The notes below the pieces were generated by a model that had not been told where the DNA came from, did no database searches, and saw only the letters and a program-made list of their open reading frames with translations. 32,000 bases of DNA from assembly GCF_002310835.1 (NCBI RefSeq), contig NZ_CP011041.1:2910001-2942000 (forward strand), read 5' to 3'. Below, piece by piece: positions 1 through 7,813 of this stretch. Numbering within the stretch: position 1 is the first letter of the stretch; every line of letters begins with the position of its first letter. The position numbers were made by a program, and so were the translations under genes. Origin of the DNA: Pseudoalteromonas tetraodonis (GTDB taxonomy: Bacteria; Pseudomonadota; Gammaproteobacteria; Enterobacterales; Alteromonadaceae).

Positions 1-105
1 ATTACTATTACTGTTTGAGCCAGTACCTTGATATAAACTCAATGCTCCAGCACCAAGTGCTGCCCCAATGATGATGGCAATAATTGTTTTTGTATTCGTT
101 GACAT
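1..105 (-). CDS. 5' end (35 codons) of a membrane-anchored protein that runs off the window. Probably the periplasmic adaptor (membrane-fusion) subunit of a heavy-metal RND efflux pump
   Basis: The ATG at 105-103 overlaps the TAA stop of the upstream outer-membrane factor gene (TAATG), and GGAG lies 7 nt upstream. The translation is MSTNTKTIIAIIIGAALGAGALSLYQGTGSNSNSN: a short tail followed by one hydrophobic helix. The function is inferred only from the usual C-B-A operon order. Confidence 0.4.
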   Translation of the reverse strand, partial: MSTNTKTIIAIIIGAALGAGALSLYQGTGSNSNSN

Positions 106-1532
106 TATTTTTCTCCAAATTGCTGACTGGATAAGTGCTGATTAGTTTTGTGTGAAGTTTGCATCGACTTATGTTCAGCATTTGAGTTAGATTGAGAATG
201 CGCAAAGAAATAGTTGATACGAGCAACTGTTTTAAGTGCGTCAACATCAATTCTTAAAGCTGATATTCTGGTATTTAATTCGGCAATTCTTGCTCGAACA
301 ACTTCGGCAAAATCGCCATCATCATTTGTGTAGGCTGTCAATGACGCTTCTGCTTGGTCATGAGTTTGTTTAAGGAGTTGTTCTTGATAGATAGATTGTC
401 TATCTGATAAGCGTTTAAGCTGTCTTAGTTCTTTTTCTAAAACACTGATCATTTGCTTTGTCAGTAATAGTTTCTCGGTTTTAATAGTCTCTGAATCTGC
501 AATAGAAGCTGCAACTTGCTTATCTTGTCTGTTCTCGGTAAACAAGGGTAAATCAAACGTTACCCCAACAGAAAATAAATCAGCTCGGCTATCACCAGAG
601 GGCATATTGTCGCGATAGGCATAACTAGCATTAACACCCCATTGCGGCTCATATTGCTGTTTGGCTAACTCAATTCCTTTTTCTGAAGCTTTGCGTTTTA
701 TATCAATCGCAAGTATGGCTGGGTGATTCGAAAGCTCCTGAGCCAATAGATTTCTTGAGTAATTAGATGCTTTTAGGACTGTTGGATTATTCAATTGAAT
801 CGAAGGCAATTCTTTTGAGACGCTAAACTCTAATGGTTGCGCGTCAAAGTTGAATGATTCATTCAAACGATCCGCATCGTAAATATGAAGCCACTCATTG
901 AGACGAGCGATTGTCGTTTCTAGTTTCTGCTTTTGCGAAGTTAATCTGTCATCTAACTGCACGATTTCCAACTGAGCACGAATAACATCTTGCTGTCTAG
1001 TTTTACCAACAACGTTTGAATAGCTAGCTTTAGCCACTTCCGCCATCTGCTCAAAGAGAGACCAATCATCTTCAATCAATTTAATAGTTTGTTGGGCTAA
1101 GTAAGCATCTAACCAAAGTTGTGACACTTGGCTTTTCAACTTAGCTTTACGATCCTCTCGTAACAGTGGAAATTTCGTGGACTCAATTTGTAACTGGTCT
1201 TTCTTGATCTCTAGACTGTCGCCTCTCGGAAACATTTGAGAGACGCCAACCTTTAGCTGAGTCATTCCTTCCTGATCTAAATCCCAAGTATCTGTTGGTA
1301 AATTCATTATCCCTAGCGATACTTTCGGATCAGGCAAAGTACCTGAAGCAATACTTCTATTTTCAACTGCACTTTGTTTCAATCGGCTACCATGAAGCCA
1401 AGGATCATTTTGCTGAGCTAAGGTGATAGCTTGTTCAAGCGACACTACTTTCTCAGCTTGAGCTGAGAATACAGATAAGCCGAGTATTAATGCAGTTGAA
1501 AGTGAAGTAAGGTTTGAAGAGTTCAATTTCAT
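105..1532 (-). CDS. TolC-family outer-membrane efflux protein (CzcC/CusC-like heavy-metal efflux outer membrane factor)
   Basis: 475-aa ORF with a signal peptide (MKLNSS...SVFSAQA/EK). It shows the long coiled-coil-rich repeats typical of outer-membrane efflux proteins. Both ends are translationally coupled to neighbours by TAATG overlaps at 1532 and 105. It sits beside a DUF411 metal-binding gene. Confidence 0.8.
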   Translation of the reverse strand: MKLNSSNLTSLSTALILGLSVFSAQAEKVVSLEQAITLAQQNDPWLHGSRLKQSAVENRSIASGTLPDPKVSLGIMNLPTDTWDLDQEGMTQLKVGVSQMFPRGDSLEIKKDQLQIESTKFPLLREDRKAKLKSQVSQLWLDAYLAQQTIKLIEDDWSLFEQMAEVAKASYSNVVGKTRQQDVIRAQLEIVQLDDRLTSQKQKLETTIARLNEWLHIYDADRLNESFNFDAQPLEFSVSKELPSIQLNNPTVLKASNYSRNLLAQELSNHPAILAIDIKRKASEKGIELAKQQYEPQWGVNASYAYRDNMPSGDSRADLFSVGVTFDLPLFTENRQDKQVAASIADSETIKTEKLLLTKQMISVLEKELRQLKRLSDRQSIYQEQLLKQTHDQAEASLTAYTNDDGDFAEVVRARIAELNTRISALRIDVDALKTVARINYFFAHSQSNSNAEHKSMQTSHKTNQHLSSQQFGEK

Positions 1533-2029
1533 TAGAATTGCTCCTCGTATGTCTTAACTTTTGCATAGACTTTGCTCGTTCCATCTTTAAATAGAATTAA
1601 CACGTTGTATGGCATAAAGCGGTCATCGACTTCCATACCGGGAGAGCCAACTGGCATTGCTGGAACTGAAAGCCCAATCGCATTGGGATGTTCTTCTGAT
1701 AAGAACTGCTGAATAAATTTAGCAGGTATATGACCTTCAAAGGCAAATCCATTTCTACTCACTGCCGTGTGGCATGAACGGTAATTAGGTTTGATACCAT
1801 ACTTAGTTTTGATGTTGCCGATGTTTCGGAAATCTTTGGAATGCGCAACGATCCCTTTGTCTTCAATATGAGTTATCCATTTTTTACAACACCCACAAGT
1901 AGGGGTTTTATAAACGATTAACTCCAAAGGTGTTACGTCGTTATTGTGTGCATGGTTATGTTCGTTGGCGTTTGCAAACGCAGGTGAAAGCAGCATTACT
2001 ACTGCTATTTTTAAATACTTATTGATCAT
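1532..2029 (-). CDS. DUF411 (CopG-like) periplasmic metal-binding protein
   Basis: 165 aa with a signal peptide and a His-rich stretch (NEHNHAHN). It carries the family-typical motifs TCGCCKKW, SCHTA, EGHIPA and VPAMPVGSPGME. Its stop overlaps the start of the efflux outer-membrane factor gene. Confidence 0.8.
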   Translation of the reverse strand: MINKYLKIAVVMLLSPAFANANEHNHAHNNDVTPLELIVYKTPTCGCCKKWITHIEDKGIVAHSKDFRNIGNIKTKYGIKPNYRSCHTAVSRNGFAFEGHIPAKFIQQFLSEEHPNAIGLSVPAMPVGSPGMEVDDRFMPYNVLILFKDGTSKVYAKVKTYEEQF

Positions 2030-2136
2030 TTTTGCCCCCAGACATCGCTGGAAAATATCTATAGCGCTACGACGCTATATTGACTAACAGAAAAATTAAT
2101 TACATGTGCGAGAAATTTGGACGCACTAATCCTGTA

Positions 2137-2496
2137 TTAGGCAAAAATTGGTGGACGATAAAGGGAAGTGGAAATTGAATGAGGTTGTTTAGATTGCAGA
2201 GCAGCTACAGATTCACTGAATATTTGAATATCTGTCGAATCAATACTGGAATTTAGGACTGTCGTAGATGAGCAAGCATTTGCAGGACAAATACATTCAA
2301 CGTCACAACAATCTTCTGATTGACCATTACTGCTTTTATTCATATCACCATGATCCATGTTCATGTTCATGTTCATGTGTGATTCGTGAGAACCTGATGA
2401 CATTTCGCAAGGCATAGCAGAATACGCAAATGCTTGCCCTACAAAGGCAACCAGCATAAGCGTCATTACTAAGACTTTTGAAAATGCTTTAGACAT
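2137..2496 (-). CDS. Secreted Cys/His/Met-rich small protein, putative metal-binding (CopL-like; tentative)
   Basis: 119 aa with a signal peptide (MSKAFSKVLVMTLMLVAFVGQAFA). It contains an HESHMNMNMNMDHGDM Met/His tract, a CCDVECICPANAC Cys cluster and a C-terminal YRPPIFA. It lies in the metal-resistance context. The family name comes from memory and is not verified. Confidence 0.55.
   Translation of the reverse strand: MSKAFSKVLVMTLMLVAFVGQAFAYSAMPCEMSSGSHESHMNMNMNMDHGDMNKSSNGQSEDCCDVECICPANACSSTTVLNSSIDSTDIQIFSESVAALQSKQPHSISTSLYRPPIFA
2356..2378. repeat. Hexanucleotide tandem repeat (CATGTT) x3.8 inside the Cys/His/Met-rich gene
   Basis: Read directly as catgtt catgtt catgtt catgt. On the minus strand it encodes the in-frame MNMNMNM tract. 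Confidence 0.9.
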
Positions 2497-2524
2497 AAAA
2501 TTCTCTTACAAATATACATCTCTA

Positions 2525-2553
2525 ATACTAATGCAAATTTTTGACTAAGTCAA
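2525..2553 (-). promoter_or_regulatory. Putative sigma-70 promoter for the 2137-2496 gene
   Basis: The minus strand reads TTGACT, a 17-nt spacer, then TAGTAT, ending about 28 nt before the ATG. The -35 element lies inside the 13-bp palindrome TTGACTAAGTCAA (2541-2553). This is an AT-rich region, so the prediction is weak. Confidence 0.35.
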
Positions 2554-2675
2554 TTGATGCTGTATAAACATTTATGAATATTTGATTATCGTCAAATTTT
2601 TCAAAGAGGTAAGTGACAAATAATAATCTCATCAGACTTCTTATCTTCGCTATTCAATGGCTTTTATTTTGAGAC

Positions 2676-2945
2676 TTAAGTTGCTCTCTCATTTCTAAAA
2701 CTCGATCTGCCGAATAAGCTCCTGCTCTCATAACAACTCCCACTATGTGTGTATATTTCTAACTTATCCTCATCAGCAGATTTGCTAACAATCTTTGAAG
2801 TCACGATTTGCTGAAATGGCCGAAACCTGAATGTTTCATCTTCAATAACCCCCCCTGATAAAAACTCGCCAAGAAATATTTTTTCAAATTCTTTATAGTC
2901 GTAAACAGATACTATGTAGGCATCCTTTAAATATATTCTATCCAA
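2676..2945 (-). CDS. Hypothetical small protein, paralogue of the 105-aa protein upstream. It is apparently frameshifted near 2731; the corrected ORF would be 2654-2945, about 96 aa
   Basis: TTG start preceded by AAGGGA 5 nt upstream, 12 nt after the stop of the upstream gene. The N-terminus (RIYLKDAYIVSV) resembles the 105-aa protein (RVKLTNAKLISI). The motif matching the paralogue C-terminus is found only in a shifted frame. Confidence 0.55.
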   Translation of the reverse strand: MDRIYLKDAYIVSVYDYKEFEKIFLGEFLSGGVIEDETFRFRPFQQIVTSKIVSKSADEDKLEIYTHSGSCYESRSLFGRSSFRNERAT

Positions 2946-2957
2946 CGTATTCCCTTA

Positions 2958-3275
2958 CTAATAACTAGCCGGGAGCATATCTCGCAGCTCTAATAACTCA
3001 TTAGGAGAATACATACACTCATGCATTAAATTAAACTCAAATGCATTTACATCAAACTCTTTAGATTCAGCATCTAAGATATAAAAGTCAACACCAAAGC
3101 ACTTACTTTCTAGACCATTGATTTCCAAAACCTTTATCGTGAATAAAGCATCTCCTTCTTTACCATTTTCATTTTCGTCAGCAAATGTGCCGTAAAGCAC
3201 CCGTTCAACTTTTTCCTCTGTATCAGATTGAATTGAGATAAGTTTTGCGTTGGTTAGTTTTACTCTAGGTCTCAT
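2958..3275 (-). CDS. Hypothetical protein, 105 aa, no recognisable family
   Basis: The ATG is preceded by AAGGAG 7 nt upstream. An ATGA overlap (3272-3275) joins it to the stop of the 345-aa gene. It has a tandem paralogue immediately downstream. Confidence 0.75.
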   Translation of the reverse strand: MRPRVKLTNAKLISIQSDTEEKVERVLYGTFADENENGKEGDALFTIKVLEINGLESKCFGVDFYILDAESKEFDVNAFEFNLMHECMYSPNELLELRDMLPASY

Positions 3276-4309
3276 GCTTGAACTCCTTTCATATCTTCTA
3301 CAGAAAAAGGACGAAAAAAACTTAGATATTTAACCCCATCAACTTTAAGCAAATTGTTGTCAGCATCAAAATGTGACAGAACACTAGATTGATACAACGA
3401 AATGTATTTTTCATAATCGATTGTGTTAAAAAAGTTGGTATCAACGCGCCTCGCATAAAAAACAAGATCTTGCTGTTCGATACGAACAATGAACTTCTGA
3501 TCGCCATCTAGATTTTTGACTCGTAGACATAAATCAGGTTTGTGCCAATCAGATACAAAGGAAGGAATCAATGGGAAGCCATATACCAAATAGCGCATAC
3601 CTTCGATTTTGAAGGTTGTTGGATTGAACTGAGCCTTATTTACTTTGCCGCTACTGAATAATTCAAGTGTCAACACCAGCCAGTGCACATGCTTAGAAAA
3701 TGTATTTCCTTCAGAAATACAGCCTTCAAACTCACCATTATGGTTTACATGATTGATGTACATGTATTTTCTAATGTCATCCAAGGAAAGCTTTTCAAAC
3801 GGAAACTTGCAAGCGATTAGCCTGAAATAACAACCATGAACTTTTAAATCTGCATATTGAACTATCAACGGATCATCAAAGGCATCAAAGTATGGTCGCC
3901 ACTCTAAGCGGAAGTCTGCACCTGTATTTACAATAAACTTGGCATTTTCAGGCAACCCTAAAACTTGGTATATCACTGAAACTAACTCTAATGTTTCGAT
4001 ATCTACCAGCATCAGGCTTTCAATACGGTTTGCCATTGACTCAATTTCTTTATGAAGCGATTCAATAATTTCTTGATCATCGTATTCGTTGATCATTAAA
4101 TATTTCAGGGAATCGTGCTTTAGAATTGAGTCCAGCTTTTTCTTTTCAAATACTTCAGAGAGATATTTATGGGTATCAGAAAAATGAGGGCAGTTATAAA
4201 CACCTCTAGCCCACAGGCCTTGGGCGTAAAGATCAGGAAACTCTAATAACTCAGCAAACTCTTTTGCTTGTTTATTGAGCTTATTCTTTAATTGATAAAG
4301 TGAGATCAC
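3272..4309 (-). CDS. Hypothetical protein, 345 aa, no recognisable family. Its N-terminal module of about 35 aa is shared with the 120-aa protein at 4518-4880
   Basis: GTG start with GGAG 6 nt upstream. It is a long ORF in AT-rich DNA and is translationally coupled to the next gene. I see no transmembrane segment or signal peptide. Confidence 0.8.
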   Translation of the reverse strand: MISLYQLKNKLNKQAKEFAELLEFPDLYAQGLWARGVYNCPHFSDTHKYLSEVFEKKKLDSILKHDSLKYLMINEYDDQEIIESLHKEIESMANRIESLMLVDIETLELVSVIYQVLGLPENAKFIVNTGADFRLEWRPYFDAFDDPLIVQYADLKVHGCYFRLIACKFPFEKLSLDDIRKYMYINHVNHNGEFEGCISEGNTFSKHVHWLVLTLELFSSGKVNKAQFNPTTFKIEGMRYLVYGFPLIPSFVSDWHKPDLCLRVKNLDGDQKFIVRIEQQDLVFYARRVDTNFFNTIDYEKYISLYQSSVLSHFDADNNLLKVDGVKYLSFFRPFSVEDMKGVQA

Positions 4310-4470
4310 TTAGTTCTCCAAACAACTTTCCAATAAACAATGGCCTACCAACACATTGCTTTATTTATTGTTCAAATAACCAAATTTTTACGGATGCTCC
4401 GCTTCACTGTTCACGTTTTTCAAGGCGAAAAACATGTGTAGGTGTAGGCTGTCCGCACAACCTTTCACTC

Positions 4471-4498
4471 ATAATATCGCTAAATTTTTAAATGGCAA
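4471..4498 (-). promoter_or_regulatory. Putative sigma-70 promoter for the 345/105/96-aa operon
   Basis: The minus strand reads TTGCCA (4498-4493), a 16-nt spacer, then TATTAT (4476-4471). This would give a leader of about 155 nt before the GTG at 4309. Confidence 0.35.
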
Positions 4499-4517
4499 CT
4501 TACGGATTTGTACAAAA

Positions 4518-4880
4518 TCAGTCAGAAATTTTGGCTTTGAACTCATCAAAGCTAAGTCCGAAAAGGGATATGACTAATTCTTCATTTATATTGGAACCGG
4601 GAAATTTTTTTTCAAAATTTCCAATGATGCTATCTAGGTGGCTAGCTAATATTTTTACTAAAAATATTTCCGAGTTTGGTGAGAGAGCAGACAGTGCTAT
4701 CAATGGGTTGTCAAAGGATTCAGCTTTTATTTTTACTAGTAAATCGCTGTAACTGTTACAGTCATACAGACAAATAGCTAGGGCTTCTTGGGCTTGTCCA
4801 AGGGGAATAGTTAATAATTTAGATAATCGTTTTGCCTGCCTTTTTATATTTACTAGCAGGTCTTCTTTATTAAAAGACAT
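4518..4880 (-). CDS. Hypothetical protein, 120 aa, no recognisable family. Its N-terminal module is homologous to that of the 345-aa protein
   Basis: The track ORF is 4518-4916. I prefer the ATG at 4880 (MSFNKEDLL...) because it places the shared IKRQAKRLSKLL...YSD module at the same offset from the N-terminus as in the 345-aa protein. The Shine-Dalgarno sequence is only weak (GGTG). Confidence 0.7.
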   Translation of the reverse strand: MSFNKEDLLVNIKRQAKRLSKLLTIPLGQAQEALAICLYDCNSYSDLLVKIKAESFDNPLIALSALSPNSEIFLVKILASHLDSIIGNFEKKFPGSNINEELVISLFGLSFDEFKAKISD

Positions 4881-5002
4881 CAATACACCAAAAAACGGCA
4901 ACGCTAGGCCACGCACCTATGTCACTCAGTTTTTGTGAATATTTAATCTTTTAGTTCAGAGTAAATCCATTTCGTCCTGTTTTCGTGGGAACGGGCTTCT
5001 CT

Positions 5003-5028
5003 GAAAAGCCACTGCAAAAAGCAGTGGC
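5003..5028 (-). terminator. Rho-independent terminator of the PIN-PhoH gene
   Basis: The minus strand reads GCCACTGC TTTTT GCAGTGGC followed by TTTTC. It is a perfect 8-bp GC-rich stem, 45 nt after the stop at 5073. Confidence 0.75.
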
Positions 5029-5072
5029 TATTGTCGCAATATTATAAGGAAATGTGAATTGTAGTTTGATGC

Positions 5073-6455
5073 CTACATGTTCTTTTCAGTGAATTCAGCC
5101 AAGCTACTACGCTCTACTTCATCAAATATCAATACTGAGCCTTTTTCATAGTTTCTATACACGTTAACAGCCGCGCTAGCACCTGAAGATGCGGGTGTGA
5201 CAAACTTATCATCAATCTGGGCTAAGTTGCCCAACACGATTGTGCGACAATTTTTGCCACCACGGCTTAACATGCCCTTAATTTGCGCTCTAGTCATGTT
5301 TTGAGCTTCATCAATGATTAAAACAGCATCGTCTATTGAACGACCTCGGAAGTAAGCCATACTAGTAAATTCTATATTGGCTTTTTCGATCACATGCTCA
5401 ACAGTTGCACTAATATTACCTTCATTGTTATCACCTGAATGCATTGATATAAGCGCATCTGTTATACCTGCTAATAACGGCATTGATTTCTCTGTCAGGT
5501 CACCGGGTAAAAACCCCGGATCATCGTCCATAAAGTCTCTGGAGCGCACCACAACGATTTTTTTGTACTTTTTTAACTCCAATACTTGATGCAGCGCCGA
5601 AGCAACTGCTAAAAAAGTTTTTCCGGAGCCAGCAGGGCCAAGGATGATATTTAAGTCATAATATGGATCTGTTAATTGGCTTAAAGCTACTGCCTGACGC
5701 TGATTTTTAGGCAAAATGCCCCATACTTTTTCTTGTTTACGAGGCAATAACTTTGTGAATACCTCAGTATCTGTTACTTCTGAAATTCGCCCAATGTGTC
5801 CAGCTTCATCGTACCAATACATGTTTGGCTGAACTTCATCATTAAATAGACTTATTGGGAAAGTATAAACTTCTCCTGAAACCTTGAAGTCTTTGTCTGA
5901 TTTAATTCGATCAAAAAGATCTCCTTTAAAGGCTTGTACCCCTGTGTATAAAAGATCAATATCTGATATTTGATTATCTACGGCAACGTCTTCTGCCATG
6001 ACCCCTACGGTTCGAGCTTTCAAGCGCATATTAATGTCACGGCTAACAATTACTACGTCTTTATCTAAGTCCTTCTGAAGATACAGTGCATAGTTAATTA
6101 TTCTATTGTCAGCGTCACTTCCAATACCGTGCTTTAACTCTTTAGCCATATCGAGCTGGGTATCAATTCCAATAAACAGTTTTCCTCGTTTAGCTGTTTC
6201 AGTAGAAGGCAGTGGAATACCAGCTTCCATCTCTTCTGCACTGTGCCCATTGATTATATCTTCAAGCATACGAATACATACACGAGCATCAGCACTAACC
6301 GATTTGTTAGTTCTTTCTTTTAAGTTATCTAATTCTTCTAGAACTGTTAGACAGATGTAAATATCATCTTGATATGACAGGATACTTTTTGGATCATGAA
6401 CCAACGCAGACGTGTCAAGAACACGAGGGTTTCGGTTTTCAACAGAGCTTTTCAT
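5073..6455 (-). CDS. PIN-domain plus PhoH-like P-loop NTPase fusion (PhoH2/YlaK-type), full length
   Basis: PIN acidic residues lie in VLDTSAL, LEELD, DNRIIN and SRDINMRLKA. Walker A is GPAGSGKT and Walker B is LIIDEAQN. I prefer the ATG at 6455 (MKSSVENRN) because GGAGGG lies 7 nt upstream; the track start at 6470 is a less likely alternative. Confidence 0.9.
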   Translation of the reverse strand: MKSSVENRNPRVLDTSALVHDPKSILSYQDDIYICLTVLEELDNLKERTNKSVSADARVCIRMLEDIINGHSAEEMEAGIPLPSTETAKRGKLFIGIDTQLDMAKELKHGIGSDADNRIINYALYLQKDLDKDVVIVSRDINMRLKARTVGVMAEDVAVDNQISDIDLLYTGVQAFKGDLFDRIKSDKDFKVSGEVYTFPISLFNDEVQPNMYWYDEAGHIGRISEVTDTEVFTKLLPRKQEKVWGILPKNQRQAVALSQLTDPYYDLNIILGPAGSGKTFLAVASALHQVLELKKYKKIVVVRSRDFMDDDPGFLPGDLTEKSMPLLAGITDALISMHSGDNNEGNISATVEHVIEKANIEFTSMAYFRGRSIDDAVLIIDEAQNMTRAQIKGMLSRGGKNCRTIVLGNLAQIDDKFVTPASSGASAAVNVYRNYEKGSVLIFDEVERSSLAEFTEKNM

Positions 6456-7813
6456 GACGCAGCCCTCCAAAAGTTTGCATCGTTGCTAGAATGCGTGTTG
6501 TACTTACATCCCAAATAACAAATACTCTGTAAAGATTGGCTATTGTGGGAATGCTTAAAGTCGTTACAAAAATCCATGTTTAGAGAAATTCTTTTTACTT
6601 TTTCTACAGGCCAATAAAAACAAGGGGGTAAAAACTTTAAAATCTTTCCAATTCGGGGTTGTAAAATCACCACCGCATTTTGAATACTACGTCCGCGCAT
6701 AAAGTTCACCGACTTAAACTGAATATTGGCTTTTTCCATAATGTAATTACGGCTCGAAATTGGGTTTTCATCACCTTTATGCAGCACTTCTAAGGTATCG
6801 GTTATGGCAGCCAACCAAGGCGCCATTTTTTCTTCCTCGGTACCAGGCAAAAAGCCAATTGATTCTGCAATTTCAGGGGTATTACGGGTTACAATGACTT
6901 TGTCGTAAATACCTTTTTCAATCACCATCTCTAGCGCACACGCAAGTGCCAGTAAAGTTTTACCACATCCCGCAGGGCCGGTTAAAATAACAAGCTCAAT
7001 AGACGTGTCGAGCAAGGCATCAAGAGCCATTGCTTGGTAAATATTTTTTGGCTTTATTCCCCATGCACTTTGATGCATCAATCGCTCTGCACCAATATCT
7101 TTAATGGTAATATGCTCACCATCATACGATTTAACTCTAGCGGCAAACTGATCGCCATCATCAAGTAAATATTCATTACAAAACACATCAGGAATTAAAT
7201 CTTTAGGGATATGATGAACTGTTTCACGTCCGTGTTGCTCAGTATTACACTGGCCGACATGCTGCCAAAAATCGCCCTCAATTTTTTTATGACCACTGGT
7301 GAGTAAATCAATATCGTCAATTAATTGATCAGTACGATAGTCTTCAACATATTTAAGCCCCGCCCCTTTGGCTTTTAAGCGCATGTTAATATCTTTAGTT
7401 ACTAATATGACTTTTTTATCGCTGTGCTGGTTTTGTAAATGCACCGCACAATTAATAATACGGTGGTCGTTTTCATTGCCCGGCAAACCAGAAATAGAAT
7501 CGGCAAATAAATGGTCGTTTACAATAATTAAGCTGCCTGTCGATCCGCCTTGTTTATTCCTTGGCAGCGCCACACCTTGTAACATTTGTTCGGGAGTTGC
7601 CTGACTCAACACCCCATCAAGGCCACGAATAGCCACTCGCGCATCGCGGCTCACATCGTGTTTTCTATCTTTTATATGATCAAGTTCTTCCAATACGGTC
7701 ATTGGGATAACAACTTGGTGCTCTTGGAATGACAAATACGCGAGGGGTTCGTGAAGTAATACATTGGTATCTAGCACATACATTTTACTATCAAAATTTG
7801 AAGCTTTTCCCAT
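6452..7813 (-). pseudogene. Truncated PIN-PhoH-like gene. The homologous part is 6662-7813 (384 codons), followed by a 69-codon unrelated tail
   Basis: The PIN motifs (VLDTNVL, LEELD, DHRIIN, TKDINMRLKA) and Walker A (GPAGCGKT) are present. Similarity to the paralogue stops at ...RGRSIQNAVVIL, where DEAQN should follow. No frame downstream encodes Walker B or the PhoH C-terminus of about 80 aa. Confidence 0.8.

Follow-up and report, generated by a model that had tools for sequence, protein, structure and literature searches.

A PhoH2 gene of Pseudoalteromonas tetraodonis broken at the probable attachment site of an SE-type integrative island that carries its own PhoH2 paralog

Results

A PhoH2 gene that breaks off directly ahead of Walker B

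The DNA analyzed here, referred to as the window, is a 32,000-nt stretch of Pseudoalteromonas tetraodonis (assembly GCF_002310835.1, contig NZ_CP011041.1, positions 2,910,001 to 2,942,000 of the forward strand), and coordinates are window positions unless a locus is named. In this window a chromosomal PIN-PhoH (PhoH2) gene next to rapA breaks off at 6661/6662. We consider it highly probable that this position is the intA-distal junction (attR) of a site-specific island, of the type known as SEs (strand-biased circularizing integrative elements), which has entered the PhoH2 gene and brings a compensating paralog with it.

The open reading frame (ORF) at 6452-7813 (minus strand, 453 aa) is the host PIN-PhoH gene that adjoins rapA. 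Its host-derived 5' part (6662-7813, minus strand) comprises codons 1-384 and encodes the PIN domain, a linker and the N-terminal half of PhoH; Walker A (GPAGCGKT) is kept, and Walker B and the C-terminal 79 residues are gone. In Pfam searches PIN_4 was found at residues 12-154 and PhoH at residues 253-384 only, corresponding to profile positions 2-125 of 205 (NCBIfam gave a match as well). The host ORF therefore does not combine a PIN domain with a complete PhoH P-loop ATPase (Walker A plus Walker B), while the neighboring paralog at 5073-6455 does. The two window proteins are 39% identical over 381 residues by BLASTP, and the alignment ends with ...NAVVIL / ...DAVLII at residue 384. The host part is 98-99% identical in amino acid sequence to an intact 463-aa ortholog (locus L001; loci are cited by their L numbers), and the nucleotide alignment of the two ends at 6662. 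Neither DEAQ nor a PhoH C-terminus is encoded in any of the three minus-strand frames between 6661 and 6456, and a tblastn search of the whole window with the 79-aa C-terminus of the intact ortholog matched the paralog alone (5076-5312, 39%). Element-specific sequence begins at 6661, and the host/element boundary is a 6-bp crossover, ATTTTA (6662-6667).

The first-pass annotation of this DNA had described a truncation rather than a frameshift, with similarity ending at 6661/6662 directly ahead of Walker B (VIL|DE) and the 3' remnant outside the window, followed by a 69-codon open frame whose TGA overlaps the ATG of the paralog (ATGA, 6452-6455) downstream of a GGAGGG sequence. All of this was confirmed by the searches and by inspection of the sequence, and the description of the locus proved right in every element.

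Empty sites and horizontal spread

A genome scan with host residues 1-384 as the query returned 80 loci. The gene is intact (463 aa) in L001, L089, and L090, which represent the empty site. In the closest locus, L001, a Pseudoalteromonas metagenome-assembled genome (99% amino acid and ~93% nucleotide identity), the intact gene reads ...VVILDESQNLTASQL... and nucleotide homology to the window stops exactly at 6662. In Pseudoalteromonas sp. DL-6 (L089) the genes after the intact one encode a sensor kinase and a GGDEF response regulator.

The occupied form is widespread. P. lipolytica (L008) shares the junction and carries a homologous island, and the identical junction was found in at least 20 independent assemblies, including the complete genomes CP001796.1 and CP011030.1 and many metagenomes. 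A protein search retrieved proteins of 452-458 aa that share the break point and have a homologous tail from several Pseudoalteromonas species, Psychrosphaera, Arsukibacterium, and Aliiglaciecola; in proteins P0031, P0034, P0035, and P0037 the tails differ at two or three residues and the N-termini are 77-83% identical to the query. The tail recurs across genera because the same kind of element recurs. When the L087 locus is compared to the window, the host 5' part is 81% and rapA 84% identical, whereas the tail plus paralog and the cargo are 99.9% identical; the corresponding figures for L178 are 88.7% for host and 99.9% for element sequence. In Pseudoalteromonas sp. SM9913 (L088, chromosome I, CP001796.1, where by our mapping window position w is position 2,826,877 + w) the host gene is 100% and rapA 99.97% identical to the window. 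Identity thus steps up at the junction, and the element moves independently of its host. The earlier view that the DNA to the left of the breakpoint is accessory, and that the breakpoint marks the edge of an accessory region, is supported by this step and by the empty sites: the DNA is absent in L001 and L089.

Junction sequences and element ends

The empty site attB (L001, L089) reads GCGGTGGTG-ATTTTA-GATGAAAGCC and the window's attR reads GCGGTGGTG-ATTTTA-CAACCCCGAATTG, both with the longer left flank AATGCGGTGGTG; attL, found in L095 and six other loci, reads CAATTCGGGGGTG-ATTTTA-GATGAAAGCC. The 30-bp attB is GCGGTGGTGATTTTAGATGAAAGCC. The hexamer ATTTTA (6662-6667, minus strand; TAAAAT on the plus strand) encodes I383-L384 and is identical at attL, attR, and attB. 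The element termini are 13-bp imperfect inverted repeats, CAMCCCCGAATTG, around this 6-bp crossover. The intA-distal terminus C' (CAACCCCGAATTG read inward; 6649-6661, minus strand) matches the opposite, intA-proximal terminus C (CACCCCCGAATTG) at 12 of 13 positions in L095, L096, and L100-L104, and the intA-proximal terminus of L091 (CACCCCCGAACTG) at 11 of 13. In an alignment of tail variants the C' columns are the most conserved. A sub-terminal 11-mer, AAAGTTTTTAC (6628-6638, minus strand), is common to both ends read inward; it lies 23 nt in from the right end and, inverted, 50 nt in from the left. Conserved among the tail variants, it may be a site bound by an accessory protein. Both junctions also contain a 10-nt direct repeat, GGTGATTTTA.

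Far end and recombination genes in relatives

The island of the window continues beyond position 1, and the far end of islands of this kind was read in relatives, reached through the GGDEF gene that lies downstream of the intact allele. In L095, L096, and L103 the PhoH gene is reduced to an 82-aa remnant (MILDESQNL...) that starts at the codons where the window gene stops. Ahead of this remnant stand three genes, all reading inward, with products of 496, 923, and 694 aa. The arrangement in L100 is alike, with products of 496, 923, and a shortened 488 aa; the genes in L212 encode 494, 918, 685, and 153 aa; and in L081 (Aliiglaciecola) the third gene (577 aa) is followed by one for a 161-aa coiled-coil protein. 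The first product (496 aa, protein A) scored 34.9 bits against Pfam Phage_integrase and the third (694 aa, protein C) 32.1 bits, above the gathering score. The third protein reads GMRKEE ... HMFRHNF ... Y and is a large recombinase of the HxxRH...Y type. The second (923 aa, protein B) has no Pfam or PDB sequence match, and PDB sequence searches with Tfp and IntA returned nothing usable. The C-terminal 360 residues of protein B align to annotated integrases at 26% identity; its family has GWN where A has GLR and keeps the invariant R and Y, so that the description "lacks all RHRY residues" is only partly true. A search with the partial 204-aa C-terminus of the L081 third gene returned four short-contig matches only.

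The core genes of these islands are often degraded among relatives (L091, L100, and L198). In L091 (1-110) the far-end intA is cut by an apparent N-terminus of an IS3-family transposase (MKKSNRYTSEFRERAIRLV..., reverse strand), where the contig ends. L198 (10001-19835) retains both ends of the type found at the SNYLT site described below (inverted repeat TACCCWATTCTTAAAT) and the 3' host remnant with no recombinase genes between them, and is possibly a non-autonomous or decayed derivative.

The gene order intA-tfp-intB-srap at one end, typical of SEs, was found, with a srap-like fourth gene, in relatives occupying the same attB and in sister elements, and so was the combination of the tyrosine recombinases IntA and IntB with a Tfp that has no recognizable catalytic domain (in relatives). 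The ends also agree with the imperfect 13-19-bp terminal inverted repeats (C, C') and 6-bp spacer of SEs (12/13 matches; ATTTTA). Proteins A, B, and C matched the intA-tfp-intB block of Vibrio cholerae plasmid pW6G with E-values of 1e-57, 4e-59, and 9e-97, respectively, the last being the match of the third L212 protein to the pW6G integrase. The pW6G block encodes an integrase (460 aa), a hypothetical protein (863 aa), a second integrase (677 aa), and a "TetR-like" protein (128 aa), and its small gene is listed among the SE srap genes (Idola et al., 2023, Additional file 3; PMC10214605). A tblastn search of plasmids found homologs of A and B on Vibrio plasmids at ~30% identity. By its ends and by the gene content of its relatives the island appears to be of the SE type.

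We propose that the island entered by recombination between its joined ends (C - ATTTTA - C') and attB, which spans the V-V-I-L-D-E codons at Walker B. The host gene would be split into a 5' part (codons 1-384, in the window) and an 82-aa 3' remnant at the far end beyond the window, where, as in intact relatives, intA (496 aa), tfp (~920 aa), intB (~690 aa), and a srap-like gene would read inward. The paralog at the right end would replace the lost PhoH2 function.

The element-borne PhoH2 paralog

Counted from its ATG, the paralog (5073-6455, minus strand) encodes a full-length PIN-PhoH (PhoH2) protein of 460 aa in which both Walker A and Walker B (IIDEAQN) are intact. This protein matches PIN_4 (5.5e-25) and PhoH (1.1e-44, profile positions 2-196 of 205) in Pfam; its NCBIfam PhoH2 score of 151 bits is under the equivalog cut-off of 680, which indicates membership at the family level and not equivalence. 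Element-borne paralogs are 70-95% identical in amino acid sequence across elements of different genera and insertion sites, GPAGSGKT and IIDEAQN are invariant among them, and their substitutions are strongly biased towards the third codon position (476:238:1286). In the compact element L212 the paralog is the only non-recombination gene, and a tblastn map alone places L214 in the same arrangement. The paralog is a core part of the element and most likely the replacement for the broken host gene.

PADLOC searches with the paralog, the truncated gene, and the four orphan genes of the cargo (see below) gave weak P-loop noise only. Rfam found no family in the window. Viral contigs scanned with the paralog and IntA yielded distant phage PhoH genes or nothing.

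The 69-codon tail

The sequence between the junction and the paralog (6452-6661, minus strand) is a read-through tail of 69 stop-free codons, formed by the right end of the element in the frame of the host gene. The 207 nt between the crossover and the paralog ATG would be terminal recombination sequences read in that frame. The GGAGGG Shine-Dalgarno sequence of the paralog (6463-6468, minus strand) lies 7 nt before the ATG, inside the last codons of the fused ORF (W-R-A), and the fused-ORF stop overlaps the paralog start as ATGA (6452-6455, minus strand).

At the base composition of the window tail, the chance of finding no stop in 68 codons is 0.7%, and its two other frames contain 4 and 5 stops. 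Thirteen distinct tails of the Walker B type were compared. They diverge at up to ~50% of positions, and not one has a stop in the host frame, whereas every other frame contains 2-10; given the base composition, a frame would stay open by chance with a probability of 0.1-3% per tail sequence. The tail lengths (165, 204, 207, 210, and 234 nt) are all multiples of three, and the changes in length, among them a 9-codon duplication and ~14-codon deletions, preserve the frame. The ending ...W/G-E/R-A-A is conserved in all tail variants, and at every Walker B-site locus the stop overlaps the paralog ATG as ATGA or TAATG. In contrast to the paralog, tail substitutions are spread evenly over the codon positions (594:682:700), and residues 389-453 have low AlphaFold confidence (predicted local distance difference test score, pLDDT, 31-39). 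Together the flat pattern and the low pLDDT give no evidence of constraint on the tail peptide. The tail is the right end of the element and not a protein domain. The first-pass annotation had raised the possibility that relatives carry the same truncated form with its tail conserved as a protein. The truncated form and a homologous tail are indeed shared; conservation at the protein level was not found, since the tail follows the element and not the host and has the even substitution pattern and low pLDDT given above.

The open frame and the stop/start overlap suggest a conserved design feature and would imply translational coupling. The simplest reading is that the frame stays open so that ribosomes and host-promoter transcription can reach the paralog. 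Because the tail is read through in the host frame and its stop overlaps the ATG just past GGAGGG, the paralog appears to depend on the PhoH2 promoter of the host for transcription and on coupling to the truncated ORF for translation. A consensus-match scan, which could miss a real promoter, found no sigma-70-like promoter or terminator in the tail on the gene strand. Directly past the paralog stop lies a hairpin (GCCACTGC-TTTTT-GCAGTGGC, followed by TTTTC; 5004-5028, minus strand) that was absent from the output of the consensus scanner and resembles an intrinsic terminator for the two-gene unit.

In a set of seven truncated-gene alleles, the ratio of nonsynonymous to synonymous polymorphism (pN/pS) is 0.02 in the N-terminal 384 codons, and the tail does not vary, whereas synonymous sites of the host part show 1.3% difference. 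This makes the element younger than the host alleles, and the ratio is uninformative about selection after insertion; its use as a sign of post-insertion selection on the truncated gene was dropped for this reason.

Other insertion sites in the same gene

A metagenome scan with element paralogs also gave 80 loci, in which the junction type was assigned from the upstream host fragment. Three main junctions were observed: one following residue 286 (GPAGCGKT|), one at residue 384, as in the window, and one at residues 423/424 (SNYLT|). The sequences upstream of the paralog cluster in three right-end families. The third family, comprising 12 loci (L207, L208, L210, L216, L218, and others), precedes the same paralog, and in L207 and L208 this right end is preceded only by a weak PIN-like fragment (residues ~11-87, 35-41% identity). 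It may represent a fourth insertion site or another target gene.

Several loci carry more than one element or a mixture of parts. Window-type cargo (an identical CusC and a 97% identical paralog) stands behind a residue-286 right end in L085, L086, and L179, which suggests that end modules or cargo are exchanged between sister elements, perhaps via recombination in the shared paralog. We had considered L085 and L086 as further decayed copies and rejected this, as they are insertions at residue 286. In L237 (2158-5444), L235, L247, and L243 a host fragment limited to residues 382-424 separates one element's intA end from the paralog end of another, so two elements occupy the Walker B and SNYLT sites of one gene at once. 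Reading of the junction in L238 (8802-11383) placed an element after Walker A of another element's paralog. A truncated element-type paralog is followed by a complete copy in L238 and L193 (1099-3740), and in L246 (10001-12359) by a second partial copy that is 75% identical and runs off the locus end. The arrangements in L238, L193, and L246 are consistent with insertion that is serial or nested and would take the replacement gene as its new target.

At the SNYLT site, an extra ORF (~25 and ~55 codons, respectively) begins 1-2 nt past the tail stop in L212 (9925-10001) and L214 (9829-10001) and, as read from the sequence, runs into a TAATG overlap with the paralog ATG; in L243 and L252 the tail stop lies at the same distance, 172 nt. 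Two sister elements at this site carry defense systems, a CBASS operon (patatin, CD-NTase, E1/E2) in L016 (16870-21010) and McrBC in L065 (17866-20902), so that the PhoH2 locus also functions as a site for defense islands.

Cargo of the island

Positions 1-5072 (minus strand) are island cargo that continues past the left window edge, assigned by Pfam and by homology to relatives. They contain genes for a CusC-like outer-membrane factor (105-1532) and a DUF411 protein (1532-2029), both identified by Pfam, and four orphan genes at 4518-4916, 3272-4309, 2958-3275, and 2137-2496 (132, 345, 105, and 119 aa), all on the minus strand. The orphans (2137-4916) had no Pfam match and no convincing PADLOC match (the 345-aa protein gave a weak Csn2 hit, E = 5.6e-4). 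Counterparts of the 132-, 345-, and 105-aa orphans are found in the same order in P. lipolytica (L008) and L085-L088, and the 119-aa orphan has only 115-123-aa counterparts at roughly the same place. The four form an uncharacterized conserved cargo block that adjoins the paralog.

The cargo block is homologous in P. lipolytica L008. In L085-L088 the cargo goes on with cusB, cusA, copC, copD, and a multicopper oxidase, and in L087 and L088 the cus/cop cargo extends over at least 16 kb away from the junction, as far as a copA-like gene. This agrees with the earlier suggestion that the inserted block extends past position 1.

Discussion

Alternative explanations

A truncated gene could in principle result from nothing more than misassembly, a frameshift introduced by sequencing, or a plain deletion. 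The bare fact of the truncation is all that speaks for this, and with an identical junction in at least 20 independent assemblies and no frame encoding the missing part we regard it as practically negligible. It is also very improbable that the truncated and full PIN-PhoH genes form a vertically inherited two-gene system in which the tail is a genuine C-terminal domain. The occurrence across several genera of 452-458-aa proteins that share the break and a homologous tail would fit such a system, as would the pN/pS of 0.02; however, sister genomes have intact alleles, identity steps up at the junction, relatives keep the 3' remnant and recombinase genes at the far end, the tail has a flat codon pattern and low pLDDT, and its identity among alleles that differ at synonymous sites makes the element the younger part. 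A more serious doubt concerns the open frame. The tail may be kept only as recombinase-binding DNA, with its openness accidental, the ATGA functionless, and the paralog expressed from signals of its own. In favor of this, the first ~75 nt of the tail are the most conserved and hold C' and the sub-terminal motif common to the other end, Walker A-site elements of the same paralog family are uncoupled, and the promoter scan was limited to consensus matches. We nevertheless judge an accidental frame rather unlikely: all 13 tails are free of in-frame stops despite their divergence, the duplication and the deletions all stay in frame, the stop always overlaps the ATG, and even the inserted extra ORF in L212 and L214 runs into a TAATG overlap.

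The class of the element is a separate matter, and an island with three integrases (GInt, ginABCD) has to be weighed against an SE. The island resembles GInts in having three genes with the recombinase fold plus a small gene for a coiled-coil, TnpC-like protein at one end, followed by cargo and a poorly conserved, AT-rich far end. It also resembles them in its flanking imperfect direct repeats (GGTGATTTTA, 10 nt, against 10-17 nt in GInts), in its high target specificity, and in that the C-terminus of the target can change, all as described in excerpts of the GInt report (PMC5385486). The second protein keeps the invariant R and Y and is without the first Arg only, as reported for GinC, and relatives of A and B are present in Betaproteobacteria, a class from which GInts have been reported and SEs have not. 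Still, we think a GInt improbable. The non-catalytic protein is third in ginABCD, whereas here the gene without a detectable integrase domain is second and the third encodes the HxxRH...Y recombinase, which is the SE order; the homologous block of pW6G, the nearest curated relative, is in the SE list and is not reported as a GInt; and 13-bp inverted-repeat termini around a 6-bp spacer are SE-like. The GGTGATTTTA repeat is also expected of an SE, because the C arm resembles attB. The GInt targets named in the same excerpts are an ABC transporter gene, ssb, ribonucleotide reductase, and the HU gene, with no PhoH among them. A Tn7-like or CAST-like element, suggested by orientation-specific insertion in a conserved gene, was rejected: the expected TnsA/B/C and TniQ/TnsD genes are absent in L212, the termini are CAMCCCCGAATTG rather than TGT...ACA, 6 bp are shared instead of a 5-bp duplication, and tyrosine recombinases stand at the far end.

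Several points weigh against an SE-type island with a coupled replacement gene. The small srap-like protein has no detectable similarity to the pW6G Srap (E = 1.4). SE tfp-srap blocks have been found only in Gammaproteobacteria (Idola et al.; PMC10214605), and ~30% identical homologs of A and B are present on betaproteobacterial plasmids of Azonexus, Azospira, and Caballeronia (L105, L106, and others). The same survey (Additional file 4) lists 0 SEs for the SM9913 chromosome NC_014803.1, and P. issachenkonii has the truncated gene at 2.9 Mb, yet its sole listed SE is at 376 kb (PMC10214605). Since no SE is listed there, the recombination genes of the window's own island may be lost or pseudogenized, or its far end may be deleted. 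As to the coupling, elements at residue 286 (the Walker A site) stop 70-290 nt before the paralog, so that coupling is not family-wide, and 4 of 13 residue-424 elements carry an extra small ORF ahead of the paralog. In P. issachenkonii (CP011030.1/CP013350.1), ginC-ginD at 360,990-363,568 and tfp-srap at 376,479-381,463 are less than 20 kb apart (PMC10214605); in this ~361-381 kb region, which has no relation to the PhoH2 locus, a GInt and an SE appear to be neighbors.

A possible renewable landing pad in PhoH2

Taking the SE-type island as the preferred explanation, we tentatively suggest, as a reading that could quite possibly be right, that it belongs to a lineage of SEs specialized in PhoH2. 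Such a lineage would use three sites in the gene (286, 384, and SNYLT 424), carry a promoter-less replacement PhoH2, and have an end that serves as a translated linker, which would turn the locus into a self-renewing landing pad for defense and resistance genes. In the Walker B lineage selection on this linker, formed by the recombination end, would act only to hold its frame open, and the replacement gene would in this way take over the promoter and ribosomes of the host gene. As the replacement gene is itself a PhoH2, the target would be regenerated and could be hit again, so that the locus would become a renewable landing pad on which defense and resistance cargo collects.

These results explain the recurrent annotation of 452-458-aa "PhoH family" or "PIN domain-containing" proteins in Pseudoalteromonas, Psychrosphaera, Arsukibacterium, and Aliiglaciecola, which are chimeras of a broken host gene and the end of a mobile element. 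They point to PhoH2 beside rapA as an integration hotspot for SE-type islands, with copper/silver efflux (window), CBASS (L016), and McrBC (L065) as cargo, and, for a class of mobile elements that has been little studied, define attB and the termini precisely. If the coupling is true, it would be a natural case of a terminal recombination site doubling as a translated linker, and the compensating gene would be expressed from the signals of the gene that was destroyed, which bears on how intragenic integration can be nearly free of cost. PhoH and these terminal sequences are unmentioned in the GInt and SE supplements and in the GMT main text; none of the 15 best-ranked of 39 papers retrieved for PhoH with integrative elements mentions PhoH, and the papers found that mention SM9913 say nothing on this island.

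Comparison with known elements

SEs are strand-biased circularizing integrative elements of Vibrio (Nonaka et al., 2018, 2022; PMC5991714, PMC9345347; survey, PMC10214605), and SE-6283 integrates into bcp and carries a bcp homolog (PMC9345347). Like SE-6283 and its relatives, the PhoH2 elements have a four-gene intA-tfp-intB-srap module, its srap-like member included, at one end and imperfect 13-19-bp inverted repeats (C/C') around a 6-bp crossover. They likewise integrate site-specifically inside a protein-coding gene and carry a homolog of the gene they disrupt, and they share marine gammaproteobacterial hosts, a G+C content below that of the host, and variable cargo. The target differs, being PhoH2 and not bcp, and the proteins are distant, at ~30% identity to the nearest curated SE block (that of pW6G, the block used for the sequence comparison). 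In the PhoH2 island the replacement gene is intA-distal, abuts attR, and is preceded by an in-frame fusion with a stop/start overlap, an arrangement that the literature found does not describe for SE-6283. Unlike SE-6283, sister lineages of the PhoH2 elements use three motif-coding sites in one gene.

GMT islands are likewise gammaproteobacterial tyrosine-recombinase islands with defense, offense, and resistance cargo (Mahata et al., bioRxiv 10.1101/2023.03.28.534373). Their core consists of three genes (GmtY, GmtZ, and the small StbA-like GmtX), compared to four genes here, including one for a 920-aa recombinase-fold protein. Tn554 (tnpA, tnpB, and tnpC; staphylococci) resembles the island in its specific site, single orientation, and 6-bp footprint. 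It differs in having no Tfp counterpart and in its Firmicutes hosts, and the passages on Tn554 in the SE survey mention no replacement gene (PMC10214605). Islands in tRNA and tmRNA genes (Islander; PMC4383910) also split their target and regenerate a functional copy from element sequence, but they restore only the displaced 3' segment, via attP identity, whereas the PhoH2 element brings a whole 39%-identical paralog and the host gene stays broken. The principle of an element-borne replacement is thus already known, and GMT islands behave likewise; the one feature that may be new is the conserved linker, open yet non-coding-like.

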